Assembly (NCBI GenBank): GCA_035387885.1
Contig: DAOOOW010000001.1
Span: forward strand, 43,392-107,391
DNA from: a bacterium
Lineage (GTDB): Bacteria; Patescibacteriota; Patescibacteriia; UBA2196
Direction of reading: 5' to 3'
Length of the DNA: 64,000 nt
This document shows, one piece after another, positions 1,476 to 33,670 of the stretch (its first letter is position 1; every line of letters starts with the position of its first letter). The notes under the pieces were generated by a model, which saw only the letters and a program-made list of their open reading frames with translations, had not been told where the DNA came from and made no database searches. The position numbers and the translations under genes were made by a program.

Positions 1476-1507
<32 letters not shown>

Positions 1508-2889: not shown

Positions 2890-2921
<32 letters not shown>

Positions 2922-3505: not shown

Positions 3506-3536
<31 letters not shown>

Positions 3537-5869: not shown

Positions 5870-6418
5870 TTAAACATTTTCATTACTTAAGATATCATCC
5901 AATTTTTGATCTAATTCCTCCATGCTAATTTTATTTTCTTTTTTATGATTCTTGATTTCCAAATCTGGCTCTGCGACTGTTGGTTCCATTACTTTCTCGA
6001 CCACCTCTGGTTCTTTCCTAACATTTTCTCTGCGTTCACTGTTATTATATTGATTATTGGCACCATAAGGGGCTCGAACATCTTCTTCTCTGTAAACCAA
6101 TTTTGGTAACTCTGTTTTTTGGTCAACAAATTTGGAAACTTCAAATCTTAAAATATCTGGCAATAAACGCAACTCACGCCATAGTTTGTCGGCATCTTCT
6201 TTAAGTACATTTTCTAAATCTAAAATAAAATTGGTATAAAAAGCATGACGGACTTTCTTTATAGGGAAAGCCAATTTCCTTTTACCAATTTTATCTTCAG
6301 CAACAACAAGCACGCCAAATTTTTGGAGTAATGCGCTAATATTCTTACTCATTTCCACTAATTGTTCTTCTGTATTATTGGGTAGTAAGACAAATAAATT
6401 ATATTTATTCATAGTCAT
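5870..6418 (-). CDS. rpsF: 30S ribosomal protein S6 (with C-terminal extension)
   Basis: N-terminal S6 fold motifs (YNLFVLL...KRKLAFPIKK..HAFY). Operon context rpsF-ssb-rpsR. Confidence 0.85.
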   Translation of the reverse strand: MTMNKYNLFVLLPNNTEEQLVEMSKNISALLQKFGVLVVAEDKIGKRKLAFPIKKVRHAFYTNFILDLENVLKEDADKLWRELRLLPDILRFEVSKFVDQKTELPKLVYREEDVRAPYGANNQYNNSERRENVRKEPEVVEKVMEPTVAEPDLEIKNHKKENKISMEELDQKLDDILSNENV

Positions 6419-6534
6419 ATTTATAATTATTTAAATATTCGCCTGCCTGCCGGCGAGGCAGGTAATAATTCGGGTAATTATTTTATTCGGATTAATTCGT
6501 AGGTAATATAGATTGACTATAATTTATCATAAGT

Positions 6535-9129
6535 TTATTTTTTTGGCAAGGGGTGCCTCAATCGCCAAATTAAAATAACTAAAATTAAAATAATTAACCA
6601 AGAAAAAACCAACAAATATGGCCACCAAGTACTCAATTTCTTTTCTTGGCCAGAAATTGTTGGATTTTTTGTTTCTTGCGAGTTGTTGGTGATAATAATA
6701 TCTTCTTGGCTTCTTGGCAAAATCCTTAAACCACTTTCGGTGGGCGAAAAAATACCACTTACTGCAACTCTGGCAGCTAAAGTTAAATTAAGTTCAGACA
6801 TATTTAAATTAGTGCCGGACTTTAAAGTTACTTTGATTTCACCGCTCCCATCATCTAACCAAAAATAATCTTTACCAATGTCTGTAATTTCGCCAATTAT
6901 TTTTATTAAAGAACCTTTCCAGGAGTCATCTTCTTTTAATTCAACAATCTCAATTTGTTCGGCTTGAGGCAAATCTGCCAGAGCTATTTTTGTAATGGCC
7001 GATTGATCTTTAATTTTAATTCTTCTTTCACCATAAGCTGTGCTTAATTCCCCAACAATTTGCAGGCGCTCGCCAAGTTGTAATTCTGGCCAATCTTTTT
7101 TAGAAGAATATATTTGTATACCTTCAGTCCCGACCACATAAAAAATGTTTACACCCAAAACTCCAGGCAAAACCGCCACCACTCCCTCGATTTGTACGTT
7201 GGTGCCATCTGCCAATTCTTTAATATCGGCCAAGGTTGTTTTTGTCAAACTTGTACCTAAAACTTTTGTAGTAGTTTTTTTAGTTGTCGCAGTTGTAGCT
7301 GCTTTAGGAGTAGTATTTTCTTCTTCTTGCCACCAAAATTTTTCTGCCACTTCTGATTTAATAATTTCAGTTTTTTCATCAAACAAATTTTCTGAATCAA
7401 TAACTTTTAAACCAATTTTTAAAGGCAATTTATCTAATTTAATAGTTAAAAGCGGGGAAGAGGTCGAAAATGTGCTGGTGGCATTATTTAAAATACTAAC
7501 TGGATAATTAAAATGCCATTCGTAAATTAAATCTTCACCTTCAGGATCACTTGATTCGCTAGCATCTAATAAAATTTCTTGGCCCGAATTTATTTCCCCA
7601 CTGACTTCAAAATAGGCATCAGGGGCTAAATTATTTCTAGTGTATAAATTAATGGCTAAAGGTGTGGCAGTTTTAGACCAATAATATTGTCCATCAGCAG
7701 CCAACATATAGACTTCGCCTTCTAAAACATTTTTAGAATATTTAAGAGTATCGACAATTTTACCTGTTGGATCAAGCAATTGGATTTCTTCACCGCCAGT
7801 ATTTTTTAAATTCAAATTAGTAATATATTTTGGCAAAAGAAAAAAATGTCCAGCTTCCAAATAAGGCCACTTAAAATCTGTTTCTTTAATAATGTATTCA
7901 CCAAGTTCAGTTTTAATTTTCCAATCAACCAAAGGAAACATTTCGCCTTCTAAACTTTTTATTTCTATCCACTCGCCTAAATTTTCTGAATTTATTTCTT
8001 TATTTAAAATTTTTTTCTGATCAAAAGGCTTGTCTAGCTTTAAATTGCCAAAATCTGAGCCAATTGGATTAGCCATAATTTCATTAAGCTTAAATCTTTG
8101 GGCATAAGTTTTTATATAAGATGCGCCCGAACCACCGCCAGCGGTTTCTTTTTGTATTTCCGTAATAATATTATCATTATTTTGTGTTTGGCTAGTACTC
8201 CAATACCAAACACTAAACTCGTCTCTAGCCCAAACAACTTCTTCGGGCGCGCTTTCAATGTAACTAATTTCACAAACTAAATTATTTTGCTCATCAAATA
8301 GACGCACTGTTTCTCCACCTGTATTATTTAAAGATAAACCAGTAATATTTTTGGGTAGCACAAAAAAACCATTGTCCAAAATTGTAGTTGTAGCAAAATC
8401 CGCAATTTTAATAACATAACTGGTGTTAGCCAAATCACTAATTTTCCAATTAATCAAATCAATCGTTGTAGTGCTTAAATTTTTTAATTCAATCCATTCA
8501 TTATCATCAACTCCAGCTGGATTAGGCAGCAACTCATTAATAACGATTTTATGGTCAGAAGTTTCTACGGCTGGCGCGACAACCCCAGAACTATTTTGGG
8601 CTTGGGGTGTACCATTGGCCAGGGCGCTGTTTTGCCAATTCAAATCAGTTTTTCTTTCCATGGTTAATTTATTATCTTTATCACCGGCCAACCAGGCACT
8701 GCTATTATCAACCAGGTCAATAACCTGGCCTTCGCTGTCAATTAACTGCAATATTTCTCCTGTATCTTCCAGAGCACCAGAATAAATTTGATTAGCCACA
8801 ATTTCTGGCACAGTATTATCGTCTGTGCGTTCTAATAGATAATATTCGCCGGCAGCTAAAGTACTAGAAGCTAAGTGGATTAAGGGTGAGCCATCTTCAG
8901 CTTTAAGAATCCAGCCTGTTAAATCAATGCTTTGTGAACTAATATTTTTTAATTCTAACCATTCCTTACTGGATGAATCGCTATTACCCATCCAAGCAAT
9001 TTCATTAATTAAAACATCTTGGAAATTAACTGCTTGCGCTGGTTTTAAAAATAAAAAAATCCCGCTAAATAGCGAGACACCAAAACAAGCAAATATTATA
9101 ATAAATTTTAGCAGTTTACTTTGCATAAG
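6535..9129 (-). CDS. Large secreted/anchored surface protein with three lamin-tail-domain (LTD) repeats, a PKD-like domain, a Thr/Lys-rich linker and a C-terminal TM anchor
   Basis: Start chosen at MQSKLL (signal peptide), because the longer ORF overlaps tRNA-Leu. Repeated NE(I/L)..NP.G.D..EWIELKN.S...IDL..W motifs typical of LTD. C-terminal hydrophobic helix. Confidence 0.7.
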   Translation of the reverse strand, partial: LMQSKLLKFIIIFACFGVSLFSGIFLFLKPAQAVNFQDVLINEIAWMGNSDSSSKEWLELKNISSQSIDLTGWILKAEDGSPLIHLASSTLAAGEYYLLERTDDNTVPEIVANQIYSGALEDTGEILQLIDSEGQVIDLVDNSSAWLAGDKDNKLTMERKTDLNWQNSALANGTPQAQNSSGVVAPAVETSDHKIVINELLPNPAGVDDNEWIELKNLSTTTIDLINWKISDLANTSYVIKIADFATTTILDNGFFVLPKNITGLSLNNTGGETVRLFDEQNNLVCEISYIESAPEEVVWARDEFSVWYWSTSQTQNNDNIITEIQKETAGGGSGASYIKTYAQRFKLNEIMANPIGSDFGNLKLDKPFDQKKILNKEINSENLGEWIEIKSLEGEMFPLVDWKIKTELGEYIIKETDFKWPYLEAGHFFLLPKYITNLNLKNTGGEEIQLLDPTGKIVDTLKYSKNVLEGEVYMLAADGQYYWSKTATPLAINLYTRNNLAPDAYFEVSGEINSGQEILLDASESSDPEGEDLIYEWHFNYPVSILNNATSTFSTSSPLLTIKLDKLPLKIGLKVIDSENLFDEKTEIIKSEVAEKFWWQEEENTTPKAATTATTKKTTTKVLGTSLTKTTLADIKELADGTNVQIEGVVAVLPGVLGVNIFYVVGTEGIQIYSSKKDWPELQLGERLQIVGELSTAYGERRIKIKDQSAITKIALADLPQAEQIEIVELKEDDSWKGSLIKIIGEITDIGKDYFWLDDGSGEIKVTLKSGTNLNMSELNLTLAARVAVSGIFSPTESGLRILPRSQEDIIITNNSQETKNPTISGQEKKLSTWWPYLLVFSWLIILILVILIWRLRHPLPKK

Positions 9130-9210
9130 ATCATTTTTATTATAACACTTTTTAAAAACCGCCAAAAGACTATAAATAAAATTTAAATTAGTATATAATA
9201 AAATCATTAT

Positions 9211-9292
9211 GCCGATGTGGTGCAATTGGTAGACACGCATGGTTTAGGACCATGTGGGGCAACCCATGAGAGTTCGAGTCTCTCCATCGGCA
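9211..9292 (+). tRNA. tRNA-Leu (anticodon TAG)
   Basis: Cloverleaf folded by hand. Anticodon loop TTTAGGA, long variable arm, T-loop TTCGAGT. Confidence 0.85.
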
Positions 9293-9312
9293 AATTTACT
9301 TTAATTCTATAA

Positions 9313-9922
9313 ATGAATGCCTCTAAAAAACACAATAAATTAATAGCGATTTTAGAAATTATTTTAATCTTTATCCTGCCTGTTTTGTTTTTGCGTTTGA
9401 GTATCATACCTAGAAATTTTTATTTACAAGTCTTGACAATTTGTACATTTTTAGTAATTGGATTAATTTTTATAGAAAAAATATCTTCAAAAAATCTAAA
9501 CATTAGAATTGACAATTTTAAAAAAACAATTTTTCCGCACTTTATTATTACTTTTGTGGGGGGGGGTAACTTTAATAGTTATGGCTATAATTCTTCATAA
9601 AGAAAAAATCAGTCTAAACCTCTGGTCGTTATTTTTTTTCTGGTCAATACCCATAAGTTTTATACAAGAATTTTTATACCGAGGCTTTTTAATATACAAA
9701 TTAAAAAAAATATTTAGTTCTAGTATCTTAATAATTCTAATTAATGCCAGTCTGTTTGCTTTTATGCATATTATATATGAACCTCTGGCCTTAATTTTAT
9801 TATTAACTTTTGTTCCTGGGCTTTTCTTATCCTGGTTATCTCTTAAATTCCCCAATCTGTGGCTACTTTCTTTAAGTCATGGCATTCTTAATTTTTTTGC
9901 TATTTGGTATGCTTTTTTTTAA
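9313..9922 (+). pseudogene. CPBP/CAAX-type intramembrane metalloprotease, split by a +1 frameshift in a G7 homopolymer (9558-9564)
   Basis: Two overlapping ORFs (9313-9600 in frame 1, 9509-9922 in frame 2). Deleting one G joins them into a protein of about 200 aa. CPBP motifs EFLYRGF and FAFMHI are present. Confidence 0.6.
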
Positions 9923-9934
9923 CCTTAAATTCTT

Positions 9935-10375
9935 ATGAGAGCATTTAAATATTACACTGTAAGTATCTTAACCTTTTTAGGAAATATTTTTTTGGCTTGG
10001 CTACTCGTATATTATGGGGGAATTCAATATATTATTGCCACGACGCTTGGTTTTTTATTTCAAACCTTGATGGCATTTTTTGTAAATAAAAAATGGACTT
10101 TCCATAAAGTAAAATTCCCGATATTTAAACCAGTTATTAAATTTTTAATTAGTAAAAAAATAATTCATCCGAAAAACAATCTCCCCAAAAGTATTTTAAT
10201 TACTACAATTGTTCAAATACTGGTCTTTCTCTTTGTTATTGCAGGTACAACAATTGGGATTAATACGTTTCAGTGGTCGTTTATTTTTTCTCGAATTTTA
10301 GCAGGAATAATTGCTGGTTTTCTGAGTTATTGCATGGACTCATATTTTACATTTAAAACAATACCATTTCGTTAA
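9935..10375 (+). CDS. GtrA-family membrane protein
   Basis: Four TM helices and a conserved KKWTF motif typical of GtrA-like proteins. Confidence 0.65.
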   Translation: MRAFKYYTVSILTFLGNIFLAWLLVYYGGIQYIIATTLGFLFQTLMAFFVNKKWTFHKVKFPIFKPVIKFLISKKIIHPKNNLPKSILITTIVQILVFLFVIAGTTIGINTFQWSFIFSRILAGIIAGFLSYCMDSYFTFKTIPFR

Positions 10376-10510
10376 ATAGTTAAAATTAATATATTATTCT
10401 TTTCCTTAAAAATCTGTTATAATAAATTCATCTTAAATATTTTCGCGTTCTTCCGCGATTTCTGTCAGCGTCCAGTCCGCGTCCAGTCCGCGTTAGTCCG
10501 CGTTTATTAT

Positions 10511-11923
10511 ATGAAATCCAAACTTCTCATTTTATTTTTTCTTTTAACCATTACTTTAAGCACTGGTTTTGGTTGCAAGGGTGGTGACAAGGTCGCTCAA
10601 AAAGCTATTCTTGACCCAGTGGAAATAAATTTCTGGGGAGTTTTTGATTCTTCAGATAATTTTGAAACAATAATTGCTGCTTATCAATTAACGCATCCCA
10701 ATGTAACTATCAAATACAAAAAGATGCGTTATGAAGATTATGAACAACAAATGTTAGAAAGTTGGGCCAATGGCACTGGTCCAGATATTTTTGCTATTAA
10801 TAATACCTGGGTTGGAAAATATCAAAACAAAATTCTGCCTTTGCCAGCAACTGTAAAAATTCCAGTCATCGAAACAACCTCTGGATTTTTGAAAAAAGAA
10901 ACTAAGGCTGTGATCAAAGAATACAATACTTTAAACATCAATCAATTAAAAAATATTTTTCCAGATGTTGTCTATAAAGATGTCACTCGTCAAGAACAGA
11001 TCTATGCTCTGCCTTTATCCATTGATACTTTGGCGCTTTATTATAATAAAGATCTTTTTAATGCCGCCGGTATTGTGCAAGCCCCAACCACTTGGCAAGA
11101 ATTTTCCGAAGATGTAACTAAATTAATTAGACTTAATGCCAAAGGCGAATTTGAGCGCTCGGCAGCTGCCATTGGTGGAGCAAATAATATCAATCGTTCT
11201 AATGATATTTTAAGTTTACTCATGATGCAAAATGGCGCCACTATGGTTGATGGTAAAGACAAAATTGCTTTTGCTAAAAATCTAAATTCTGATAGTGATG
11301 TCAGACCAGGCGAACAAGCTTTGCAATTTTATGCCAGTTTTGCTCAACCATCCAAAGATGTTTATACTTGGAATAATACTTTACCAGAATCATTAGATAT
11401 GTTTTCATCTGGTAAATTGGCCATGTTTTTTGGCTATAATTATCAATTGCCTTTAATTAAAGCTCAAGCGCCAAGAATTAATTTTGCCCTAGCCAATATG
11501 CCTCATCTAAAAAATGACACTACTGATGCTTTTGGTTTGCCCATAAATTTTGCCAATTATTGGCTCTACACTGTTTTTAAAAAATCTGCTCATACTGATG
11601 AAGCTTGGGATTTTCTAGTTTTTTTAACCACTAAACAATACCAAGATGCCAATGGTAAACCTAGATACTATGCTGAAGACTATTTAGATACGGCAGCCAA
11701 TCCACCAGCCTTAAAAAGTTTAATCCAAAATTATCAAAATAAATATCCAGAATTAGCACCTTTTGCCAGTCAAATTTTAACTGCCGATTCTTGGTATCGG
11801 GGTAAAAATCCAGATGAAGCTAATAAAATTTTAAAACAATTAATTAATACGGCCGTGCTTGGCAATGAAGAACTTTATCGCGCAATTTCTGCTGCTGCTT
11901 CGGCTATTCAGCAATCATATTAA
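10511..11923 (+). CDS. Extracellular solute-binding protein (ABC transporter, family 1 SBP), lipoprotein
   Basis: Signal peptide plus lipobox-like TGFGC. Length and motifs (GPDIF..NN.W) fit sugar-type SBPs. Confidence 0.75.
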   Translation: MKSKLLILFFLLTITLSTGFGCKGGDKVAQKAILDPVEINFWGVFDSSDNFETIIAAYQLTHPNVTIKYKKMRYEDYEQQMLESWANGTGPDIFAINNTWVGKYQNKILPLPATVKIPVIETTSGFLKKETKAVIKEYNTLNINQLKNIFPDVVYKDVTRQEQIYALPLSIDTLALYYNKDLFNAAGIVQAPTTWQEFSEDVTKLIRLNAKGEFERSAAAIGGANNINRSNDILSLLMMQNGATMVDGKDKIAFAKNLNSDSDVRPGEQALQFYASFAQPSKDVYTWNNTLPESLDMFSSGKLAMFFGYNYQLPLIKAQAPRINFALANMPHLKNDTTDAFGLPINFANYWLYTVFKKSAHTDEAWDFLVFLTTKQYQDANGKPRYYAEDYLDTAANPPALKSLIQNYQNKYPELAPFASQILTADSWYRGKNPDEANKILKQLINTAVLGNEELYRAISAAASAIQQSY

Positions 11924-11940
11924 TAATTCTAAAAAATATT

Positions 11941-12507
11941 ATGAAGAAAAAATATCTGCTCCTATTTTTTTCTTGTTTAATAATTCTAAATGGTATTTTG
12001 TTAAATTTTCCAATTGCTAAAGCCTCTTGTCTTTGCATTTGTCAAGATACAGCCAGAAACAGTACTTGTTTTTTTGACCAAAAAGATTCGGCGAGTATTT
12101 GTAAGGACACTTGCACAAACAACAACCTTGAATACCTAGATTGTGATAGTAGCAGACCAGATGAATCAGGATTTTATTGTACTACCCCAGGAACTCCAGA
12201 ACCAGCAGACGCCGCTAACGGTTCCAGCGGCAGCTCTGAGACAGCCAGTTTTGACAATCCAGTACCGATTTTTAATAAAAAATCTTTAGCTGATGTTGTT
12301 GGCTTAATTATTAAAGGCCTACTGGGTTTAATGGGAATAGCAGCTTTAGTTATTTTTATTTATGCCGGATTTTTGTGGATGTTTGCCAAAGGCAACAGCG
12401 CCCAAATTAAAAAATCAATTGATGTCATGAAATATTGTGTTTTGGGCATAGCTGTCATCTATTTATCTTATGCTATGTTAAAATTTGTTTTTGGGATTAT
12501 TAAATAA
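11941..12507 (+). CDS. Pilin-like secreted two-TM protein (VirB2/TrbC-like architecture) with a Cys-rich N-terminal variable region
   Basis: Signal peptide. C-terminal core GLIIKGLLGLMGIAALVIFIYAGFLWMFAKGNSAQIKKSIDVMKYCVLGIAVIYLSYA. Paralogous to 12761, 13126, 13789 and 32681. Confidence 0.55.
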   Translation: MKKKYLLLFFSCLIILNGILLNFPIAKASCLCICQDTARNSTCFFDQKDSASICKDTCTNNNLEYLDCDSSRPDESGFYCTTPGTPEPADAANGSSGSSETASFDNPVPIFNKKSLADVVGLIIKGLLGLMGIAALVIFIYAGFLWMFAKGNSAQIKKSIDVMKYCVLGIAVIYLSYAMLKFVFGIIK

Positions 12508-12760
12508 TTTTTTTTAGTTTATCCCTTTTTAGTTTATCCCGAGCGAATTTACCTTCAGGCAAATGCGCTGAGGGATCTCATTTCTATTCTTGTGTTTTTA
12601 TGTTTTAATGTTTTCATGTTATAATAATTGTGGATAATTATTAGCACCATTCGCAATTTAAAATATTCGTATTAATTCGCAATTTCAATTCGCACAATTC
12701 GCATTAAATAAAAAAGGTCGACTATATAAATTTTTTATTAATTATTTTCTATAAAAAACT

Positions 12761-13126
12761 ATGAACAAAAAAACCTTACAAAAGATTTTCTTTTCCTTGG
12801 CTTTAATTGTTTTAATTGCCCCTATCATGGTGGCTGCCGACGATTTTGGCATAGACAAATTAGATCCTCTTCATTTACCTAATCAAACAGCAGATCCAGA
12901 ATCAATCATCGGCAATGTGATTAACCTAATTCTAGGTTTTTTAGCTTTAATTGCTGTAATTATTATTTTAATAGCTGGTTTTGAATGGATGACTGCTGGT
13001 GGCAATGATAAAAGAGTAGAAACTGCTCAAAAAAGATTAAAATATGGTTTAATTGGTTTAATCATTATTTTCTTAGCCTACGGCATTGTTACCTTTGTTT
13101 TATCAACTCTTACCGATATTGTCTAA
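12761..13126 (+). CDS. Pilin-like secreted two-TM protein (VirB2/TrbC-like), minimal paralog
   Basis: Signal peptide, then LIAGFEWMTAGGNDKRVETAQKRLKYGLIGLIIIFLAYGIV core. Confidence 0.55.
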   Translation: MNKKTLQKIFFSLALIVLIAPIMVAADDFGIDKLDPLHLPNQTADPESIIGNVINLILGFLALIAVIIILIAGFEWMTAGGNDKRVETAQKRLKYGLIGLIIIFLAYGIVTFVLSTLTDIV

Positions 13127-13782
13127 TGAAACATTTAAATTTTAAAAATTTATTCAGCCTTAAAAGGCATCTAAATTTAATGGTTATTGCAATAACTATT
13201 GTTTTTTTATTTTCGTTTGTCTCCCCCGCATTTTGCGGGGGAGCGCAAGCAGCAGACACCGGACTGAAAGAAACAGCCGAAAAGGCTGGTTTACCAATTA
13301 CTGGCGATTTAACTGCTATTATTGGACAAATAATTTACACTATTCTGGGTTTCTTGGGTGTAGCTTTTGTAATTTTAGTTTTATATGGTGGGGCTAAACG
13401 CATGTTTGCCAAAGGAGATAGTAAACAAATCACAGATTCCAATGGCATTATCACTTCTGCTGTGGTGGGTGTGGCTATAATTTTATTATCTTATATTATT
13501 ACTGCTTTTGTTATCAGCCAAGTAAAAAGTAATATTGGAGCTGGAAGTGATACTACTTATCCAGTAAGTGGAGAGCCACGAGGCGCAGAATTACCAAGTT
13601 CTGGGTGTACACAGGACTCTGATTGTTCATGTAGTACAAGATTGCAACTGCCCAAATGTATTATAAGTTCTGGGATGTGTGATGTGTGTCAAAGTGTTCA
13701 ATGTATAGATGCTAGTGATTGTACTGGCGAAAGTCCAATAGGTTGGACTTGTGTAAATCATACATGCACGCAAGGTAACTAG
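13126..13782 (+). CDS. Pilin-like two-TM protein (VirB2/TrbC-like) with a Cys-rich C-terminal domain
   Basis: Core LYGGAKRMFAKGDSKQITDSNGIITSAVVGVAIILLSYII. C-terminal 60 aa with 12 Cys. Carries an in-frame CCCCCGCATTTTGCGGGGG palindrome. Confidence 0.55.
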   Translation: MKHLNFKNLFSLKRHLNLMVIAITIVFLFSFVSPAFCGGAQAADTGLKETAEKAGLPITGDLTAIIGQIIYTILGFLGVAFVILVLYGGAKRMFAKGDSKQITDSNGIITSAVVGVAIILLSYIITAFVISQVKSNIGAGSDTTYPVSGEPRGAELPSSGCTQDSDCSCSTRLQLPKCIISSGMCDVCQSVQCIDASDCTGESPIGWTCVNHTCTQGN

Positions 13783-13788
13783 TTTAAT

Positions 13789-14193
13789 ATGCTTTATTCT
13801 CTTTCTAAAAAACCATTGCTAATTATCTTATTTATTGCTTTGTTTTTTTATTGTTTTATTCCTGTGCCCTCACAGGCTTCTATTTTTGATGCTATCACCA
13901 CTAATTTAGGCATTTTTAATCAAGGCGCTGAATTGCCAACTAGCAATGTTGGCCTTGAAGGCATTGTGATTAATATTATTAATACCGCTCTTTCATTTTT
14001 GGGTTTAATATTTGTTTGTCTGGTGCTCTATGCTGGTTTTCTCTATATGACAGCCGCTGGTGAAACAAAAAAAGTAGAAAAAGCTAATAATATTTTAAGA
14101 GATTCGGTTATTGGTTTAGCTATTATTTTTGCTTCCTACGTTCTGGTCAATTATGTAATTACCGAAGTTATTAAACTTATTAAAACTGCTTAA
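13789..14193 (+). CDS. Pilin-like secreted two-TM protein (VirB2/TrbC-like)
   Basis: Signal peptide, then LYAGFLYMTAAGETKKVEKANNILRDSVIGLAIIFASYVLV core. Confidence 0.55.
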   Translation: MLYSLSKKPLLIILFIALFFYCFIPVPSQASIFDAITTNLGIFNQGAELPTSNVGLEGIVINIINTALSFLGLIFVCLVLYAGFLYMTAAGETKKVEKANNILRDSVIGLAIIFASYVLVNYVITEVIKLIKTA

Positions 14194-14415
14194 AAAAATA
14201 ATTATTTTTCTTAACTCCGACCACCCAGTCGGTTTTTTGTTTACCATAAAGTATATTTTATTAAATTAATTTTGTCTTACTACTATAACCACCCCGCCCG
14301 ACTCCGTCGAGGCACCCCTCCTTGAAAAGGAGGGGATAAATTTTATTCCTCTATTTTAATAGAAAAGAATATTAAAAAATAAAAAACGGCACTCATTGAG
14401 CGCCGTTTGTGTCTG

Positions 14416-14793
14416 TCATCTTCGCGACTTGGGGTTTCGAACTGCCCCAGCCGAGTTTATATCTTCCTCTGCTTGTCTTTGTCTCTGAGGAGTCAGCGAA
14501 CGAGAAGATTTTTTTTCATCTCCAGCAGATCTATGACCGTACTCTTGCTTATAAATTTTAACCTGTTTAGTCTGGCCAACAACCCCCACCGGGGTCTGTT
14601 CTGTAATTATCTCGGCCACAGTCCCGGTGATTGACTCTGCCTCTCCAGATTTAATTTTTTCAGAGACAGCTTCATTCATAGCACTCAGGCTATTGTTGTA
14701 ATTTGCTAGCGACTTGTGAATCGGGCTATAACATCCCGAGGCCACATACGCTACTAACAAAAAAACAACTGTCAAAACAAGTAGTTTTTTCAT
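14416..14793 (-). CDS. Putative lipoprotein (hypothetical)
   Basis: MKKLLVLTVVFLLVAYVASGC lipoprotein signal preceded by GGGAGG RBS. Lies in a region of elevated GC. Confidence 0.5.
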   Translation of the reverse strand: MKKLLVLTVVFLLVAYVASGCYSPIHKSLANYNNSLSAMNEAVSEKIKSGEAESITGTVAEIITEQTPVGVVGQTKQVKIYKQEYGHRSAGDEKKSSRSLTPQRQRQAEEDINSAGAVRNPKSRR

Positions 14794-14809
14794 CTCAACC
14801 TCCCAATAT

Positions 14810-15067
14810 TTAAAACCAACTTTCCACAAAATTCACCACTATTGGCCAGAGAACAGTGTTGGTAATTCCTTTAATCAGAAGAACCAATACTGCCGCCCAG
14901 CAAATGGAATGTAAGGTGGCAAAAAATATGGCCAATGTTTTGCTACCTTCATCTTTGCAATCATCTGCTTTTTCGACAAACCACAAACCGGCCAGAAAAA
15001 ACAATACAGCTACCAAAAAATGCGTAGCAAAACCTTGCGTCCAGTTTTGTTTAATAAGTTCCCACAT
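14810..15067 (-). CDS. Small integral membrane protein (hypothetical)
   Basis: Two or three predicted TM helices. Start uncertain. Same operon as 14416 and 15079. Confidence 0.4.
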   Translation of the reverse strand: MWELIKQNWTQGFATHFLVAVLFFLAGLWFVEKADDCKDEGSKTLAIFFATLHSICWAAVLVLLIKGITNTVLWPIVVNFVESWF

Positions 15068-15078
15068 AGTACCTCCTG

Positions 15079-15357
15079 TTATCTGGCTGGAGCGTTGAGC
15101 ATAATCCACCAGCTATACCAATCAATATCAAAATAATTAAAAAGAGTTAAAAACATAAACACAATGCCAGCAAAGGCAATAACACCTTCAATTACATCAA
15201 TTAAAAAAACAACTTTTTTTCCTATCTTCTTTTTCTTTTCAAAAAAAATACTAAGGCGATCTATGGAAAAATACAGAGCGGCACACAGACCAAGTGCAAC
15301 CAAGGTTGCCAATTGATCACGTATAAGATGCAACAGTGAACTTTCCGGAATCGGCAT
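15079..15357 (-). CDS. Small integral membrane protein (hypothetical)
   Basis: Two TM helices. First gene of the minus-strand operon. Confidence 0.45.
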   Translation of the reverse strand: MPIPESSLLHLIRDQLATLVALGLCAALYFSIDRLSIFFEKKKKIGKKVVFLIDVIEGVIAFAGIVFMFLTLFNYFDIDWYSWWIMLNAPAR

Positions 15358-15431
15358 AACAACCTCCTGCTATTAAATGACCTGATTTGAAATTACTATT
15401 TAATAAATCAGCATACTTTATTTGTATATTT

Positions 15432-15447
15432 TTGTCAACCTTGACAA
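15432..15447. promoter_or_regulatory. Perfect palindrome TTGTCAACCTTGACAA in the divergent promoter region. A second TTGACA..TATATT lies at about 15494-15515
   Basis: Read directly from the sequence. Sits between the divergent operons 15357(-) and 15539/15889(+). Confidence 0.4.
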
Positions 15448-15888
15448 AATTTTCAATCTATGCTAAGCTTGTATATTCTAATAAAAACAGCTCGTTGACA
15501 AATATTAATATATTAAGGAAGGAAAAAGGTGATTACTTGTGGCAAAAACCATAGCCACTTTTGTATATCAAACAAGTATCCCTACTAAGGATGAAAGGGG
15601 CCCATTCGTGGCTGTTCATTCTAAAATGATAACGGGGGTTCTTGTTAAGAAAACAGCGGGATGTATATGGATAAAACCGGCTGTTTTAAATGAGCGCGGA
15701 TCTGTTGTTTCTATTAATAGATCAATTGCGCAATTTTCAATCTCAAAAATATCTGGCCCGATAAACTTCAAGCAATCAAGCTAACGAGCCAGTATTTTAT
15801 ATTAATAAACAGACCGCGAAAAATTAATAGCTTTTCGTTGGTCATAGTGTTGTTTAATTTCTTAACTCCCATGGTGGAGGAGGAAAAA

Positions 15889-16812
15889 ATGAAAAAGAGC
15901 GAAACTTTTATTCCGGGCGCCAACCAAATCAGTATTGGGTATGTAGCACTGTTCCCCGGAAAACTGACCCAGCTGAGAGACGACATCCCATGGGTAAAAA
16001 CCCGTGTGCTCAACGGCAATTTGCCGGGGACGGAAAAGGACTCGGGGATAACCGTGGTGCCGTGTCATTTGGATCACGGCAAAATCACCTTACCCGAGGA
16101 CATTGCCAACCACGCGTGTATCCAAAGATGGGAACGCGATGGTGTGACCCATCAAGAGGGCGGTCCGCTTCAACCGGTTTATGCCCTCAAGTCTGTTGAA
16201 AGACGCGGAAAGGATGAAAATGGCAATGGATTCGTCATCCTGCCGTGTCTTACAGATGGCAGTGCCCCCTATGGGTCATTTGTACCCGCCCAAGACGGCC
16301 AAAAAGATTACATCGTCGCCTATGTCAACAACATTGTGGACGGCATAACGGTTATGCTGATGGTGGAAGCCATTGAAAACGGAGTCTATCACGCCCACAT
16401 CTCGGTCGCGAATTTTACAGTCAATAGTATGACCGGGGAAGTTTTGCGTGAGAACGCCATCAACAGAGCGTTTGTGGTCGAAGGACGTCCGGATACTCTG
16501 CCGAATTTTTCTTCAAGAGTCGGCGAAAAGTATCTCGAAGCCTTTAAGGCGGCTATGGCCATTTTCAAAAGTATGGCGAAAGGCGAACGCCAGTGCGCCA
16601 TGTGGGTCAAGGACATTACCCGTCCGATCACTGCCCCCGTCCCCGATGCACCGTCTCCGGTTGAAGAACCGGCATCGGCGCCCGCTCCGGAAGCGAAAAG
16701 CAAAGGTGGCAAAGGCAAAAAGGCTGCCAAACAGCCCACGGCCGATGTCACGACCAATGGTGGCAACGGCCACACCGACACTGTGCCAGCCCCCAACGAA
16801 GTTGTTGCCTAG
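15889..16812 (+). CDS. Hypothetical protein, strongly GC-rich (about 50% GC against about 30% background), Pro/Ala/Lys-rich C-terminal tail
   Basis: GGAGGAGG RBS before ATG 15889. No family recognised. Confidence 0.6.
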   Translation: MKKSETFIPGANQISIGYVALFPGKLTQLRDDIPWVKTRVLNGNLPGTEKDSGITVVPCHLDHGKITLPEDIANHACIQRWERDGVTHQEGGPLQPVYALKSVERRGKDENGNGFVILPCLTDGSAPYGSFVPAQDGQKDYIVAYVNNIVDGITVMLMVEAIENGVYHAHISVANFTVNSMTGEVLRENAINRAFVVEGRPDTLPNFSSRVGEKYLEAFKAAMAIFKSMAKGERQCAMWVKDITRPITAPVPDAPSPVEEPASAPAPEAKSKGGKGKKAAKQPTADVTTNGGNGHTDTVPAPNEVVA

Positions 16813-16831
16813 TCCATCAGGACAAGGCAGA

Positions 16832-16863
16832 AGCTCGTCTCTTAGGAGACGGGCTTTTTTATT
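16832..16863 (+). terminator. Rho-independent terminator
   Basis: AGCTCGTCTCTTAGGAGACGGGCT followed by TTTTTTATTTT. Confidence 0.6.
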
Positions 16864-16963
16864 TTTATTTTTTTAAAACTTTTATTTAATCCACAACTTG
16901 ACCGTTCATAATAATTCTGATAGCCTATTAAAATAAAATATAAAATATTTGGAGGAAAAAATA

Positions 16964-17458
16964 ATGCCCAAGCATACCGTAGCGTCTCTTAAAGAAATAC
17001 CTTATGAATTCCATCCTGATTTAGAAAAAATAATAATTGCCTCGCAAACAAACAGAGGCGAAGAAAGTGTGCAAAAAGTACTCATTTCTTTGGCGAGTCT
17101 TAAGGGTGTGGTAACCGTCATTCCCACCACCACTTATTCTAAAAGAGATCGCTATGGTATTGATATGCAAATTACAATTACTACACACACAAAACAAGAA
17201 AACCGGTTTGGCAAAATCGTTGCTAAAAAAGTGATCCTGACATTCCCTTTGCAAATCAAAAGTTCTGTGATAACAGCCCAAAATTTTATTACTAAATACC
17301 CAGAAAGAGAAATTCCTGTTCTGGTACATTTGCCAGGTGCAACCACAAAAGAAATTATTAATGCCTTTGGCAGATTATTAGACAAATATAAATCACCAAC
17401 GCAAAGGAAAAACGGCATCATTGAGATAGCCGGAGAATATTCAAAAGACTCACCATAA
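16964..17458 (+). CDS. Hypothetical protein
   Basis: GGAGGAAAAAATAATG RBS. No domain recognised. Confidence 0.5.
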   Translation: MPKHTVASLKEIPYEFHPDLEKIIIASQTNRGEESVQKVLISLASLKGVVTVIPTTTYSKRDRYGIDMQITITTHTKQENRFGKIVAKKVILTFPLQIKSSVITAQNFITKYPEREIPVLVHLPGATTKEIINAFGRLLDKYKSPTQRKNGIIEIAGEYSKDSP

Positions 17459-17540
17459 AGCCGAGATTAATTTAATTTTGGCTTTTCTTTTTTCTAAAAA
17501 TAAAGTACAATAAAAACAGTTATTGAAAATAAAAAAACAT

Positions 17541-17626
17541 GGAAGGGTCGCATAGTTGGTCTAGTGCGCACGCTTGGAAAGCGTGTGTGGGGCAACTCAC
17601 CGCGAGTTCGAATCTCGCCCCTTCCG
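17541..17626 (+). tRNA. tRNA-Ser (anticodon GGA)
   Basis: Anticodon stem-loop CACGC-TTGGAAA-GCGTG, long variable arm, T-loop TTCGAAT, discriminator G. Confidence 0.85.
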
Positions 17627-17765
17627 AATAGATGTCCTCAAGCAGACAAATGAACTGCTTCATTTGTCGGTGCGATTCGAACAGTTTTTCCTTATCCCGA
17701 AAACTCGGGATGGAAAAACATTGAGAATCCCTGCCTACCGGCAGACAGGTCGCCCCTTCCGAATT
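17627..17765 (+). repeat. tRNA-adjacent hairpin-rich element ending in a duplicate of the tRNA-Ser 3' end (GTCGCCCCTTCCGAAT)
   Basis: Direct repeat of the tRNA 3' terminus at 17611-17628 and 17749-17765. Internal hairpins, including ATCCCGAAAACTCGGGAT and CCTGCCTACCGGCAGACAGG. Confidence 0.5.
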
Positions 17766-31592: not shown

Positions 31593-32627
31593 TTATATTT
31601 TACCATCGGCCATATATAAATTAGCAACCTCTTTAGTAATTAAGCCTTCTTCCACTTTCTTTTCCAAATCTTGATCTAAAGACATCATTCCAACATCAGC
31701 CGAAGTTTGCATAACGGTTCTTAATTGATTAGTTTTACCTTCTCTGATTAAATTGGCAACAGCTGAATCATTAATTAAAATTTCTCTCACCGCTAAACGA
31801 TTGCCGCTTTTACCAATTATTAATTGTTGTGAAATAACCCCATTTAAAACCATAGCCAATTGGACTTTAATTTGATCTTGTTGATGTGGCGGGAAGACAT
31901 CAATAATACGATCTATGGATTGGGCCGCACTATTAGTGTGCAAAGTAGATAAAACTAAATGTCCTGTTTCAGCTAAAGTCAAAGTAGCCGCAATGCTTTC
32001 CAAATCGCGCATTTCCCCAACCATAATTACATTAGGGTCTTGGCGAACAACATGTTTTAAGCCTTCAGCAAAAGAAACAGTGTCTATTTCAACCTGACGT
32101 TGTTTAATAATGGATTTAATAGGTGTAAAAACAAATTCAATTGGATCTTCCAAAGTTACAATATGCGCTGATCTTTCTTTATTAATTAAATCAATCATAG
32201 CCGCTAAACTAGTTGATTTACCGCAACCAGTTGGACCAGTTAATAAAATTAAACCCTGTTTCCTGCGAGTTAATTCAAAAACAACTTCTGGTAAACCCAA
32301 CTCTTCCATAGAAGGAATTTGAGAAGGTATGATACGGGCTACTAATCCTAAATAGCCTTTTTCAAAATGACAATTAACCCTGAAACGGGTTTTATCCACT
32401 GTCTCTTCAGAAAAATCTAATTCTCTAATATTAATTAATCTTTCCTTTTGTACGGGCGTTAAAATTTCATAAATTAAATTTTCCACTGCTTTAGCATTTA
32501 ATTCTGGCACGCCTTTAACTGCTTTTAATTCACCATTAACACGAAAAATTGGCGGCTTGCCAACAATAATATGCACATCAGAGGCTCCTTTATTAGCTGC
32601 TTCTTGAAAAATTTCTTTAAGATTCAT
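31593..32627 (-). CDS. pilT: Type IV pilus retraction ATPase PilT (twitching motility)
   Basis: Walker A LLTGPTGCGKST. PilT-type motifs (VGEMRD, SIDRIIDVF). Length 344 aa. Confidence 0.85.
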   Translation of the reverse strand: MNLKEIFQEAANKGASDVHIIVGKPPIFRVNGELKAVKGVPELNAKAVENLIYEILTPVQKERLINIRELDFSEETVDKTRFRVNCHFEKGYLGLVARIIPSQIPSMEELGLPEVVFELTRRKQGLILLTGPTGCGKSTSLAAMIDLINKERSAHIVTLEDPIEFVFTPIKSIIKQRQVEIDTVSFAEGLKHVVRQDPNVIMVGEMRDLESIAATLTLAETGHLVLSTLHTNSAAQSIDRIIDVFPPHQQDQIKVQLAMVLNGVISQQLIIGKSGNRLAVREILINDSAVANLIREGKTNQLRTVMQTSADVGMMSLDQDLEKKVEEGLITKEVANLYMADGKI

Positions 32628-32680: not shown

Positions 32681-33670
32681 CTATTGCCCACCGCAATAGT
32701 CCGACACACTTGCATGATAATGTGGATTAACGTCTTTTCTGTTGGTTTCATCTCTAAAGGTACATCCTGCTTTTTCTACCAACTGTTTCAAAAGAGCGGC
32801 TTGATCTGCAGATTGAAAATATTGGCTCCTAATATCTACCGCATATGACTGTGGTGGTGTAGTTGGCGTAGAGCCACCATAGTGACATGAATTTTTAGCA
32901 TGTGCACATTTTGGATCAGTCCAAGCTGCACCACTACAATTTTCTATCCCAGCAGAATCACTAATAGAAGTGATATAAATATCTGAGGATTTTAAAACCA
33001 TACCACCGGCGCCAGCATCTAGAGTATCTTTCATACAGGTAAGCGCCCTTTGGAGTGCGGGAGAAACATCCTTTGCCTGATCATGCCTTCCGTTAGGAAA
33101 TGGATTAACACCTCCTGAATAATCTGTAACTGCTCTTGTGCACGAAGCTATGGCAGAAACAGGTAACAAAACTGCAGTACTCGTTTCCCACCCCCCGCCA
33201 TTACCAGAATTGGTAACTTCTACATCTCTCCAAATAATATCGCCTGCGGTTGGTTTTTTCTCACAAGTAAATGTTTGCCATGATTGTTTAAAAACGGTCG
33301 ACACACCTTTACCAGTTTGTTTGCCGTCTGTCAAAGTATAGATTAAATAATTCACTCCAGCCCAAGCAATATAGATAACAAACATGCCAATTACTGCATT
33401 AATCATAATTTTGGTGGCACTAGATATTTTAGCAGAATTACCTTTACTAGTAATTAAAGTCAAGCCAGCATATAAGAACATAAGCAAGGCGGCCACTCCA
33501 GAAAGACCAATAATATAATTGGCAATTTTGGTAACCAAATTTAAGGCATCACAAAAACCGCAATTACCTGTGGCATAACAGTCCATTACCAAACTGGCCC
33601 CTTGAGCTATAAAGGGAATTAACAAAATGCTTAAAGAAAAAATTAAAATTTTAGATTTATTTTTCAACAT
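32681..33670 (-). CDS. Large pilin-like protein: signal peptide, VirB2/TrbC-like two-TM core, and a Cys-containing C-terminal domain of about 200 aa
   Basis: Core LMFLYAGLTLITSKGNSAKISSATKIMINAVIGMFVIYIAWAG is paralogous to the 11.9-14.2 kb cluster. Adjacent to pilT. Confidence 0.55.
   Translation of the reverse strand: MLKNKSKILIFSLSILLIPFIAQGASLVMDCYATGNCGFCDALNLVTKIANYIIGLSGVAALLMFLYAGLTLITSKGNSAKISSATKIMINAVIGMFVIYIAWAGVNYLIYTLTDGKQTGKGVSTVFKQSWQTFTCEKKPTAGDIIWRDVEVTNSGNGGGWETSTAVLLPVSAIASCTRAVTDYSGGVNPFPNGRHDQAKDVSPALQRALTCMKDTLDAGAGGMVLKSSDIYITSISDSAGIENCSGAAWTDPKCAHAKNSCHYGGSTPTTPPQSYAVDIRSQYFQSADQAALLKQLVEKAGCTFRDETNRKDVNPHYHASVSDYCGGQ

Follow-up and report, generated by a model that had tools for sequence, protein, structure and literature searches.

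A tandem array of VirB2-like pilin paralogs and a fifth paralog with a predicted zinc-hydrolase domain in a Patescibacteria chromosome

Four consecutive small genes (A to D) on a Patescibacteria chromosome, together with a separate fifth copy, encode what an initial annotation read as VirB2/TrbC-like pilins, raising the question of what such proteins build at the cell surface and what the domains appended to some of them do. We addressed this question in the window, the whole 64,000-nt stretch of DNA analysed here, which lies near dnaA. As pilin arrays in Patescibacteria are already published (PMC12102498, PMC10633639, PMC12857230), with 441 arrays of 2-11 VirB2-like pilins in 383 assemblies (PMC12102498), the array in the window is not itself new. 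VirB4 has been reported in 2,417 of 3,035 Patescibacteria assemblies, and the phylum's T4SS is the only monoderm system with pilin genes (PMC10633639, PMC12857230), monoderm T4SS classes normally being without VirB2 (PMC12102498, PMC12857230). In S. epibionticum, the one species tested, the T4SS is essential: the cluster SEML1_0006-0019, which includes PF18895 pilins, was found to be so by Tn-seq, as was its six-gene pilin array (PMC10633639). As far as literature searches show, what is new here relative to PMC10633639 and PMC12102498 is the member fused to a peptidase and the variation of cassettes between strains. The linkage of the fusion to T4SS genes in relatives is also new.

Family and shared layout of the five proteins

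A Pfam profile search matched PF18895 (T4SS_pilin) to all five ORFs, which were confirmed at their given coordinates: those starting at 11941, 12761, 13126 and 13789 on the plus strand and that at 32681 on the minus strand. Relative to the gathering score of 26.6 bits, B (45.1 bits), the fifth paralog (31.9 bits) and D (29.7 bits) score above and A (21.3 bits) and C (17.3 bits) below; though sub-threshold, A and C align across the entire core, with 30-43% identity to B and D. The TrbC/VirB2 family PF04956, suggested initially as a check on each core, was confirmed for B only (33.3 bits, gathering score 27.9), with A at 21.3 bits, below threshold, and no match for C, D or the fifth paralog. B also passes NCBIfam NF045849 (42.4 bits, gathering score 40). 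The profile results support placing the cores in the VirB2/TrbC-like superfamily, specifically in the Patescibacteria family PF18895. An HMM built from the five cores and run against the 509 stop-to-stop ORFs of the window found no sixth copy, the next best ORF having E = 0.045.

The 74-aa two-helix membrane cores are 27-45% identical in pairwise comparisons. Hydropathy analysis shows in every copy an N-terminal hydrophobic signal-like stretch with an A-x-A-like site at its end, then two hydrophobic helices separated by a short, K/R-rich loop, and places the appended segments of the paralogs outside the cytoplasm; the common layout of signal peptide and conserved two-helix core claimed at the outset is thus present in all five. 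Agrobacterium VirB2, RP4 TrbC and F TraA (PF04956) have the same long signal peptide, two helices, short basic loop and outside termini. The present set differs from these canonical pilins in that only B passes PF04956, the organism is monoderm, and the large appended domains are foreign to canonical members. VirB2 and TrbC pilins undergo head-to-tail cyclisation.

Two other classes of protein were considered at this level. A regular-expression search found the G-F-T-L-I-E prepilin motif neither in the five proteins nor in any window ORF, bearing out the initial annotation, and the prepilin-peptidase class III signal, G/(F,M)-T-L-(I,V)-E ahead of a hydrophobic helix, is absent from all five; these results support the view that the five ORFs are not type IV pilins. 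Small two-helix proteins encoded in tandem, some with Cys-rich tails, also resemble membrane-active peptides such as holins or bacteriocins with their immunity proteins, an assignment that the initial annotation had named as incompatible with its pilin reading. Yet no holin or bacteriocin family among the Pfam and NCBIfam profiles matched even at E <= 1, exporter, immunity and lysis genes are missing nearby, and the genes show 1:1 orthology in a housekeeping context, which makes this explanation extremely improbable.

Table 1. Features of the pilin array, the fifth paralog and their neighbours (positions in the window)
Feature	Position	Strand	Remarks
Solute-binding lipoprotein (SBP_bac_1/8)	10511..11923	+	470 aa; Pfam PF01547, 117 bits
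Pilin paralog A	11941..12507	+	188 aa; signal peptide, Cys-rich module, Gly/Ser/Pro linker, core residues 115-188
Promoter-like segment ATGTTATAATAATTGTGGATAATTATT	12611..12645	+	TATAAT/GATAAT and perfect DnaA-box 9-mer; promoter scan match 12611-12638
Strain-variable segment	12648..16623		pilins B-D 89.5% identical in DNA to strains L001-3
Block of 4x ATTCGCA and one ATTCGTA	12649..12703	+	one copy of a 50-nt dispersed repeat
Pilin paralog B	12761..13126	+	121 aa; no Cys, no appended domain
Pilin paralog C	13126..13782	+	218 aa; long signal region, core residues 61-136, C-terminal Cys-rich tail
Pilin paralog D	13789..14193	+	134 aa; no appended domain
Two terminator-like hairpins after D	14217..14335	+	consensus scan only
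PilT-like T2SSE ATPase	31593..32627	-	PF00437, 152 bits
Fifth paralog	32681..33670	-	329 aa; signal peptide, core residues 41-114 (33329-33550), linker, C-terminal zinc-hydrolase domain
Hedgehog/DD-peptidase (LAS) type zinc-hydrolase domain	32684..33103	-	residues 190-329 of the fifth paralog

Organisation and strain variation of the array

The array lies ~35 kb from dnaA in a cassette surrounded by housekeeping genes. Only 17 nt separate A from the end of the solute-binding protein (SBP) gene, whose product has an N-terminus (LSTGFGC) that looks lipoprotein-signal-like on inspection. A homolog of this gene stands immediately before the pilin array in L001-L004; in L019, L029 and L031 (E 1e-31 to 1e-66) one stands before an array together with a pilin-peptidase fusion. 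The SBP gene is conserved next to the pilin cassette. The start codon of C overlaps the stop codon of B, and the terminator-like hairpins predicted by consensus scan at 14217-14232 and 14315-14335 (the latter with 9 pairs including 6 G-C) may close a B-C-D transcription unit.

Of the paralogs, B matches the family best and is the most strongly conserved. Its 93 homologs, from Kuenenbacteria, Komeilibacteria and other Patescibacteria, all belong to PF18895, and some are named 'pilin' or 'VirB2 component'; its AF2 model (pLDDT 82.6) has helices at residues 46-77 and 83-120. We propose that B is the main (bulk) subunit. The Cys-rich segments are indeed N-terminal in A (8 Cys in residues 30-80, 12028-12180) and C-terminal in C, where the tail holds 10 Cys in residues 161-214 (13606-13767) and not the 12 in 60 aa counted initially. 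Neither module matches Pfam. C has only 3 homologs among 5.8 billion proteins, too few for structure prediction of its tail to be of much use, and P0262 and L004 bear different Cys tails. A DsbA-like oxidoreductase gene is also found in the window, at 21615-22343.

L004, from a lineage 44-59% identical, has 1:1 orthologs of all four array genes in the same order (B 59%, D 50%). Its ortholog of A (117 aa) is without the N-terminal Cys module, and the Cys tail of its third gene cannot be aligned to that of C. By this comparison the array is old and stable and the Cys modules are lineage-specific additions, and the earlier idea that Cys-rich domains had been swapped among the paralogs was abandoned.

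Between close strains, the exposed parts change abruptly. Identity to other strains falls from 99.7% to 89.5% at 12643/12648, the ATTCGCA block marking the left breakpoint of the strain-variable segment. The part from 14270 to 16623 has no DNA similarity to strains L001-3, the encoded proteins being 34-52% identical over aligned parts. The flanks of variable segments are 96-99.9% identical (98-99.9% to L001 for the segment in Table 1). The peptidase-coding segment of the fifth paralog likewise has no detectable DNA similarity between closely related strains. A differs from L001-3 by three nonsynonymous and no synonymous changes, and pN in the C tail is ~7-fold that of the core (0.080 vs 0.011). 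Near-identical genomes thus differ in the exposed parts of these proteins, a pattern expected of host-range or evasion determinants.

Positive selection was considered as a source of this variation. In a Nei-Gojobori comparison of the window with strain L002, pN/pS was below 1 in every segment, at 0.24 in the C tail and 0.04-0.12 in the cores. Variation of the surface parts, which the initial annotation had suggested, is therefore real, but it resembles allele replacement, and diversifying selection (dN/dS > 1) finds no evidence in these segments.

Both elements described initially upstream of B are in place. The perfect DnaA-box 9-mer (TTATCCACA) lies on the minus strand at 12629-12637, and ATTCGCA starts at 12649, 12675, 12688 and 12697, with ATTCGTA at about 12666. 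The 50-nt dispersed repeat containing the ATTCGCA block occurs in three copies in the window, and the block precedes B in L001-3 and not in L004. Six copies of TTATCCACA occur in the window where 0.6 are expected, and nearly the same 27 nt lie upstream of the B ortholog in L004. Despite this enrichment and retention we did not interpret the DnaA box as a signal for replication or regulation, as promoter conservation accounts for the 9-mer equally well because it overlaps the -10-like GATAAT.

The fifth paralog and its genomic neighbourhood

The C-terminal appendage of the fifth paralog, described initially as a Cys-rich domain of about 200 aa, is present and has a different make-up: the AF2 model contains a low-confidence linker of ~75 aa (about residues 115-189) followed by a folded domain of ~140 aa that is not merely Cys-rich and has a zinc-hydrolase fold of the Hedgehog/DD-peptidase type. 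NCBI lists a 100% identical protein under the name 'pilin', and three further Cys lie at residues 31, 37 and 40. Alignment to Shh recovers the H-x-H motif and the catalytic Glu, with E308, H317 and H319, invariant in 18 of 18 homologs, aligning to Shh E177, H181 and H183. The canonical H-x(6)-D zinc-ligand motif is lacking; in its place an invariant His and Asp align to Shh H141 and D148 with a spacing of x15 in the window protein and x12 in the shortest homologs, a motif variant in which the greater length is due to a Cys-containing insert. From this alignment H263, D279 and H319 are putative zinc ligands and E308 a putative base; H257, S235, S237 and D238 and the Cys at 245, 255, 262 and 326 are also invariant. 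Compared with known LAS hydrolases (ShhN, bacterial Hh-like proteins, MEROPS M15; PMC6027127), the domain is set apart by its x12-15 rather than x6 spacing and the insert, by the four extra Cys and the invariant S-x-S-D, and by its fusion to a pilin-like hairpin. No Pfam Peptidase_M15 family or HH_signal matched the window protein or 17 homologs at E <= 1, and the best Foldseek match to an M15 peptidase was weak (ChiX, E 0.88).

Judged by fold and motifs, the domain probably cuts the cell wall. Since the Hedgehog fold can lose catalysis, as Drosophila Hh shows (PMC6027127), it might instead be a non-catalytic binding module, an adhesin whose ligand is a host glycan or peptidoglycan, as in animal Hedgehog signalling. 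The non-canonical H-x12-15-D spacing would fit such a role, as would the rapid allele replacement between strains, which is typical of adhesins. However, H263, D279, E308, H317 and H319 are kept in homologs only 27-69% identical to the window protein, and it is exactly those zinc and catalytic residues that a Drosophila-type loss removes. We therefore regard a pure binding function as quite unlikely and retain the hydrolase assignment. The domain forms at least 457 clusters at 50% identity, covered by no Pfam model, and a pilin core is present in 130 of its 150 best matches, so that the combined architecture is a family trait. Fusions also occur in Saccharibacteria, as in L028.

The initial annotation placed this gene beside the retraction ATPase gene pilT, which indeed lies 54 nt downstream on the same strand. 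The adjacency is kept in L007-9, L018 (58% identical protein) and L037 and is absent in L019-L035, where the fusion stands beside PF18895 arrays, an SBP gene or a gene for a VirB4-like ATPase. Being confined to the near clade, it provides no evidence of a link to pilus retraction. The fifth gene could still be co-transcribed with pilT and serve type IV pili, for instance by making an opening in the wall, with its pilin similarity irrelevant to T4SS; the short same-strand gap, kept in L018 and L037, is in keeping with this, as is a PilM, PilO and PilB-like cluster ~8 kb left of the window. But the prepilin motif is missing, and none of the more distant loci has pilT as a neighbour, making a type IV pilus function very unlikely.

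Pfam scans of large ORFs in the window and 10 kb on either side (~84 kb in total) found no VirB4, VirB6, PrgI or VirD4, so the T4SS ATPase that the initial annotation had proposed to look for is not encoded around the array; the only related ATPases there are FtsK (54773-56977), PilT and a PilB-like protein. Co-encoding with VirB4 is seen in the relatives L027 and L033 and in published genomes. In L027 a VirB4-like gene lies 4.6 kb upstream of the fusion on the same strand, and in L033 the same ATPase (PF19044; 96-100 bits for the two) lies 1.6 kb upstream of a 1,238-aa protein with the hydrolase domain, in which the pilin core was not detected. Pilin arrays are headed by the fusion in L019, L029 and L031, and one of the neighbouring genes in L020 encodes a pilin core joined to a lysozyme-like SLT_3 domain, each scoring below threshold.

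Wall-hydrolase domains genetically tied to T4SS parts are known from VirB1, PrgK, TraG of pIP501 and SEML1_0006/0007. The first three have lytic transglycosylase and CHAP domains, not carried on a pilin core. SEML1_0007, which contains an ECOD Hedgehog/DD-peptidase domain, adjoins VirB4 and is essential in S. epibionticum; it has 1,113 aa against 280-450 aa in the pilin fusions. In L027 the fusion and the VirB4-like gene upstream of it share one orientation. Most Patescibacteria genomes seem to be without a VirB1-type wall hydrolase (PMC12102498); the widespread family fusing a pilin core to a zinc hydrolase is a candidate for this missing activity and offers a testable lead on the role of the T4SS apparatus at the host surface.

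A proposed T4SS surface structure and its alternatives

Profile matches, topology, the hydrolase fold and motifs, synteny and strain comparison establish the family, layout and variation of the five proteins. On this basis we consider it slightly better than an even bet that they are VirB2-like pilins building a T4SS surface filament or conduit, the fifth bearing a wall hydrolase; that they polymerise, depend on a T4SS, act on a particular substrate or have any role in host contact is what we infer. Four of the genes form an old cassette of fixed order: the SBP gene runs into A, while B, C and D follow a conserved promoter-like segment and end at a terminator-like hairpin. After cleavage of the signal peptide, each Sec-exported protein would span the membrane as a hairpin whose two termini face outward and whose short basic loop lies inside. 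A monoderm-type, VirB4-driven T4SS encoded elsewhere in the genome would then build the filament or conduit from these proteins, with B, plain and best conserved, as bulk subunit, A and C as accessory subunits with outward disulfide-rich modules, and D as a further plain variant. In the fifth paralog the same hairpin would hold the LAS zinc hydrolase outside the cell on its flexible linker, most likely to cleave peptide bonds of peptidoglycan and so do the job of VirB1-type hydrolases in other T4SSs; the target could be the cell's own wall, the host wall at the contact site, or both. Recombination between strains would exchange the exposed parts. The fusion itself may never polymerise, because a 200-aa appendage on every subunit would be hard to fit into tight pilus packing.

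The most substantial alternative, which we hold to be rather less probable, treats the PF18895 hairpin as an all-purpose anchor of two membrane helices that presents extracytoplasmic domains, such as wall hydrolases and Cys-rich binding modules, on the cell surface without polymerisation or a T4SS. The fusion would then remodel the cell's own wall as the cell grows or divides or as pili pass through. Large C-terminal domains are found on many family members (248-747 aa in total), as a display anchor would have them, and the window cassette sits among housekeeping genes. Arrays are often far from VirB4: the nine-gene PF18895 arrays of L010 and L011 have none within 10 kb, and published pilins lie near virB4 in 1,135 of 1,948 assemblies (PMC12102498). 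The hairpin fold is generic: no Foldseek match had an E value under 0.6, subunit c of ATP synthase being one of the best, and a PDB profile search with the hairpin turned up no pilin. The literature examined on the phylum reports no observed VirB2-type filament, stating only a 'potential to elaborate conjugative pili' (PMC12857230). Against an anchor, however, the profile similarity is specifically to TrbC/VirB2 and to mycoplasma ICE pilin-like proteins, arrays are dominated by plain members of the B and D type that have nothing to display, and the pilin arrays within the S. epibionticum T4SS cluster are essential. Cassette-like replacement of exposed domains is also more readily explained by an interaction surface than by routine turnover of the wall.

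A bolder version of the T4SS reading, speculative and on balance unlikely, would make the PF18895 hairpin a modular carrier by which enzymes and binding modules are mounted on the filament. Pilin-peptidase fusions, and pilin-lysozyme-like ones such as that of L020, would co-polymerise with plain subunits, the armed filament would breach host peptidoglycan where the cells touch, the SBP would capture released material or recognise the host, and cassette swapping would tune the system to host wall chemistry. If true, it would give the essential Patescibacteria T4SS its first function and reveal a novel means by which an epibiont opens a host cell.

Set beside published Patescibacteria arrays such as SEML1_0014-0019, the window array has the same PF18895 membership, the same layout of signal peptide and two helices and a chromosomal location in a replication-origin-proximal region, and its paralog identities of 27-45% compare with a mean of 25% and a maximum of 54% in PMC12102498. 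Unlike those arrays, it is not beside virB4 within ~84 kb and forms a conserved unit with an SBP lipoprotein gene, and two of its members carry Cys-rich extracellular modules. The VirB2 arrays of Bartonella and Anaplasma, as cited in PMC12102498, are likewise tandem divergent copies read as exposed-surface variation; these organisms are diderm intracellular pathogens with complete VirB systems. A further difference is that the window paralogs are ancient and stable in position, varying by allele replacement between strains and not by recent duplication.

Five pilin-like genes and their family

The four tandem genes A-D and their distant paralog, the fifth gene, were all recovered where the initial annotation had placed them, and the five proteins have in common a 74-residue core with 27-45% pairwise identity (MAFFT alignment). 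Hydropathy analysis bore out the proposed signal peptide and two-helix layout: in each protein an N-terminal signal-like stretch leads to an A-x-A-like site and two hydrophobic helices separated by a short Lys/Arg-rich loop. When the 509 stop-to-stop ORFs of the window were searched with an HMM built on these cores, no sixth copy came up, and no window ORF carries a type IV prepilin motif, in line with the earlier claim for these genes. The Cys-rich N-terminal segment ascribed to A holds 8 Cys at residues 30-80. The C-terminal tail of C is Cys-rich as described, but with 10 Cys in residues 161-214 rather than 12 in 60, and the fifth protein has 3 Cys before the first helix and 8 after the second. 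The appended modules are all extracytoplasmic by topology, and a DsbA-like oxidoreductase is encoded within the window.

Coordinates of features in and around the pilin cassette
Feature	Position (nt)	Strand	Description
LAGLIDADG_1 ORF	508-1029	-	homing endonuclease, just 3' of 23S rRNA
23S rRNA	1053-4296	-	span 3,244 nt vs 2,925-nt model
50-nt repeat AAAATATTCGTA-TTAATTCGCAATTTCAATTCGCACAATTCGCA	3839-3888, 4660-4709, 12654-12703	+	within 23S rRNA span, upstream of 23S gene, upstream of B
AT-rich insertions	4019-4147, 4425-4549		about 125 nt each
LTD protein	6535-9240	-	901 aa, three Lamin Tail Domains + C-terminal OB-fold
SBP	10511-11923	+	SBP_bac_1 solute-binding lipoprotein
A	11941-12507	+	188 aa ORF
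DnaA box TTATCCACA	12629-12637	-	perfect match, upstream of B
ATTCGCA copies	12649, 12675, 12688, 12697		upstream of B
B	12761-13126	+	121 aa ORF
C	13126-13782	+	218 aa ORF
D	13789-14193	+	134 aa ORF
Hypervariable island	14270-16623 and 15838-17458		directly 3' of pilin cassette
tRNA-Ser	17540-17627		end of GC-rich region
pilT	31593-32627		beside fifth gene
Fifth gene	32681-33670	-	329 aa ORF
Repeat membrane protein	33823-34581	-	252 aa, adjoins fifth gene
LAGLIDADG fragment	35016-35243	-	near tRNA-His
DUF5652 protein	35259-35495	-	78 aa, near fifth gene; C-terminal end CCADEKCCCGDKK
dnaA	46989-48359
AbiEii-type toxin gene	62361-63053	+	nucleotidyltransferase

In Pfam, PF18895 (T4SS_pilin, a VirB2-like family of Patescibacteria) was the top match for all five proteins. 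The match clears the gathering threshold in B (45.1 bits), the fifth protein (31.9) and D (29.7) and stays under it in A (21.3) and C (17.3). Two further profiles are passed by B: PF04956 (TrbC/VirB2, 33.3 bits) and the mycoplasma ICE pilin-like family NF045849 of NCBIfam (42.4 bits). The PF18895 and PF04956 matches support the VirB2/TrbC-like assignment; no holin or bacteriocin family was among the profile matches of the five. B is the most conserved paralog, has the top family match and lacks an appended domain. Its 93 homologs in a 5.8-billion-protein collection are all PF18895, the named ones being called 'pilin' or 'VirB2 component' and assigned to Kuenenbacteria, Komeilibacteria or 'Patescibacteria group'. 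The NCBI entry 'pilin [bacterium]' matches the fifth protein at 100% identity.

Quinonero-Coronel et al. (2025) applied PF04956 and PF18895 to 3,035 Patescibacteria genomes. Of these assemblies they reported 2,417 with VirB4 and 1,948 with both VirB4 and VirB2-like pilins, the pilins being near virB4 in 1,135 of the 1,948, and they counted 441 arrays of 2-11 pilin genes each, with a mean identity of 25% and a maximum of 54% (PMC12102498). By Tn-seq, the T4SS cluster of S. epibionticum was found to be essential, a series of pilin genes included (Wang et al. 2023, PMC10633639). The observation on the window is confirmed and its family assignment supported; given these papers, the tandem array is one more example of a known phenomenon. 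No account was found in the literature of the pilin-peptidase fusion, its linkage to the solute-binding protein (SBP) or the strain-level cassette replacement.

Cassette order and strain variation

Relatives were retrieved by exact-protein look-up. Three close strains (L001-L003), in which B is 93% identical, have the gene order of the window: S18-SSB-S6, the LTD protein, SBP, A-B-C-D and, further on, RecG. The same order is kept in the much more distant L004 (GCA_035397205.1), with 1:1 orthologs of A (46% identity), B (59%), C (44%) and D (50%) and flanking genes diverged to a like degree (SBP 56%, RecG 69%, S6 41%). By this comparison of gene order, the cassette is old and stable. The A ortholog in L004 is a 117-aa protein without the N-terminal Cys module and the C ortholog has a Cys-containing tail that is unalignable, so the modules are lineage-specific additions to fixed paralogs. 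The idea that Cys-rich domains were swapped among paralogs does not hold, as L004 has fixed 1:1 orthologs with differing modules.

Only 17 nt separate the SBP gene from the start of A, and terminator-like hairpins follow D. The four ATTCGCA copies and the DnaA box noted upstream of B are both present; a 27-nt promoter-like segment with the DnaA-box 9-mer is kept upstream of B in L004, while the ATTCGCA block is not. The window holds 6 copies of TTATCCACA against 0.6 expected (4819, 12629, 39879, 54021, 61008 and 61031), which are scattered with no cluster at dnaA, the last two 23 nt apart. SBP is an 'orphan' with no ABC permease nearby, and several Patescibacteria lineages keep it directly 5' of pilin arrays or of the pilin-peptidase fusion. 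The LTD gene lies two genes upstream of SBP in the opposite orientation, and its synteny with the cassette holds in L001-L004.

DNA identity between the window and L001-L003 is 99.4-99.9% at 5781-12643 and 89.5% at 12648-14269 (B, C and D), the left breakpoint coinciding with the ATTCGCA block. No DNA similarity is detectable at 14270-16623, where the encoded proteins are only 34-52% identical to their counterparts over the aligned parts; from 16624, identity is back to 98% in L001. Between the window and these strains, A has three nonsynonymous substitutions, all in the signal peptide or Cys-rich module, and no synonymous ones. For B-D, pS was 0.07-0.58 by segment (cores 0.22-0.39). The suggested diversifying selection was not borne out by the strain comparison: pN/pS was below 1 everywhere, with its maximum in the Cys-rich tail of C. 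The fifth gene was compared with strains L036 and L037, in which the flanks are 96-97% and the first 165 codons 90-97% identical. The linker end and whole hydrolase domain (33173-32652) have no DNA similarity to either strain, with 49% protein identity, and similarity returns directly after the stop codon. The exposed parts thus appear to change through replacement of whole alleles by divergent ones, and positive selection on point mutations was not detected.

The hypervariable island contains three minus-strand genes for small membrane proteins or lipoproteins and a 324-aa ORF without Pfam match, between strain flanks that are 98-99.9% identical. The 324-aa gene and a 169-aa island gene are absent from L004. 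GC content in the 16-18 kb region is 0.43, compared to about 0.32 elsewhere.

A putative zinc hydrolase fused to a pilin core

Eighteen homologs of the fifth protein, 27-69% identical to it, were aligned. Invariant in the C-terminal part (C-domain) are Q198, S235, S237, D238, C245, C255, H257, S261-C-H-Y-G265, S275, A277, D279, E308, H317, H319, S321 and C326. With this alignment, AlphaFold2 gave a pLDDT of 81-90 at residues 190-329, behind a low-confidence linker (about 115-189). Independently, all PDB sequences were searched with an HMM made from 15 C-domains; Hedgehog N-domains were the sole matches (22 sequences, E 4.7e-4 to 5e-3), aligning 'SCHYGG...SYAVDI' with 'SLHYEGRA(V/L)DI' and 'E.NH.HVS' with 'ES..H.H.SV'. 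In Hedgehog, zinc is bound by H141, D148 and H183 and E177 is catalytic (PMC6027127). From the alignment, H263, D279 and H319 are the putative zinc ligands corresponding to H141, D148 and H183, and E308 would correspond to E177. The C-domain departs from the Hedgehog/DD-peptidase family definition in its His-to-Asp spacing (x15, or x12 in the shortest homologs, versus x6) and its additional invariant Cys. Neither the Pfam M15 nor the HH_signal model matched the fifth protein, and with Foldseek the M15 peptidase ChiX came up only as a weak match.

Run with HMMER against the complete set of 1.84 billion cluster representatives, the C-domain profile yielded 693 proteins at E <= 1e-3 (457 at E <= 1e-10), with the domain almost always C-terminal. 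A pilin core precedes it in 130 of the 150 best matches, and several of the remaining 20 appear fragmentary. Thirteen genome loci belong to Moranbacteria/Moraniibacteriota, Gribaldobacteria, Saccharibacteria, Paceibacterota and others, with one record labelled Bdellovibrionales. In most of the loci whose context was analysed, another PF18895 protein adjoins. L019, L029 and L031 run from an SBP homologous to that of the window through the fusion to pilin genes. In the complete Moraniibacteriota genome L027 (CP064994.1), a VirB4-like ATPase (PF19044, 96-100 bits; AAA_10) lies 4.6 kb upstream of the fusion on the same strand. The same ATPase is found in L033, where a C-domain protein of 1,238 aa with no detected pilin core follows 1.6 kb downstream. 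SEML1_0007 of S. epibionticum (1,113 aa), scored essential, adjoins VirB4-like SEML1_0008 and has an ECOD 'Hedgehog/DD-peptidase' domain at 951-1105 (Wang et al. Table S2, PMC10633639). Fusions of this kind are widespread and associated with pilin arrays and T4SS genes.

In the reading with the best support, the five proteins serve as structural units and accessory subunits of the Patescibacteria T4SS surface structure, and one specialised subunit type would display a zinc peptidase that cuts the wall on the cell's outer side; filament formation, T4SS dependence, the substrate and any host role are matters that we infer. The main rival is that the PF18895 hairpin is a mere membrane anchor. No T4SS ATPase was found in the ~84 kb examined (window plus flanks). 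Other PF18895-core proteins bear large C-terminal extensions (284-747 aa in total; L020 3831-4685, L025 2321-4564, L026 37-1902, L029 8498-10348, L031 8183-10363), a lysozyme-like SLT_3 domain included, which suggests that extracellular domains are commonly carried on this hairpin in the phylum. In the L020 neighbour gene, pilin core and SLT_3 domain both score just under threshold.

Neighbouring genes and repeats

The window is chromosomal and near the replication origin, with dnaA, dnaN, recA, ftsK, uvrA, ribosomal protein genes and nine tRNAs. The adjacency of pilT to the fifth gene is true of the window; elsewhere it is restricted to a near clade (L007-9, L018, L037). A type IV pilus cluster (PilM, PilO-like, PilB-like T2SSE) with an 894-aa CARDB-like protein lies 7-10 kb left of the window start (L012-L014), so pilT is about 40 kb from its partners. 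The 252-aa membrane protein has four 'CY.KLAIKNN..C' repeats and no Pfam match, and is conserved in L036. A 208-aa ORF without family match overlaps the toxin gene downstream.

The third copy of the 50-nt repeat marks the strain-variation breakpoint; L001 has a clear copy upstream of B only and a degraded one upstream of the 23S gene. Inverted repeats (ATCC.CACTAACTTTTTGC / GCA.AAAGTTAGTG.GGAT) flank the AT-rich insertions, the first of which lies within the 23S rRNA gene, in its 5' part. Both are missing in L001, which is otherwise 96-99% identical, and they look like miniature mobile hairpin elements.
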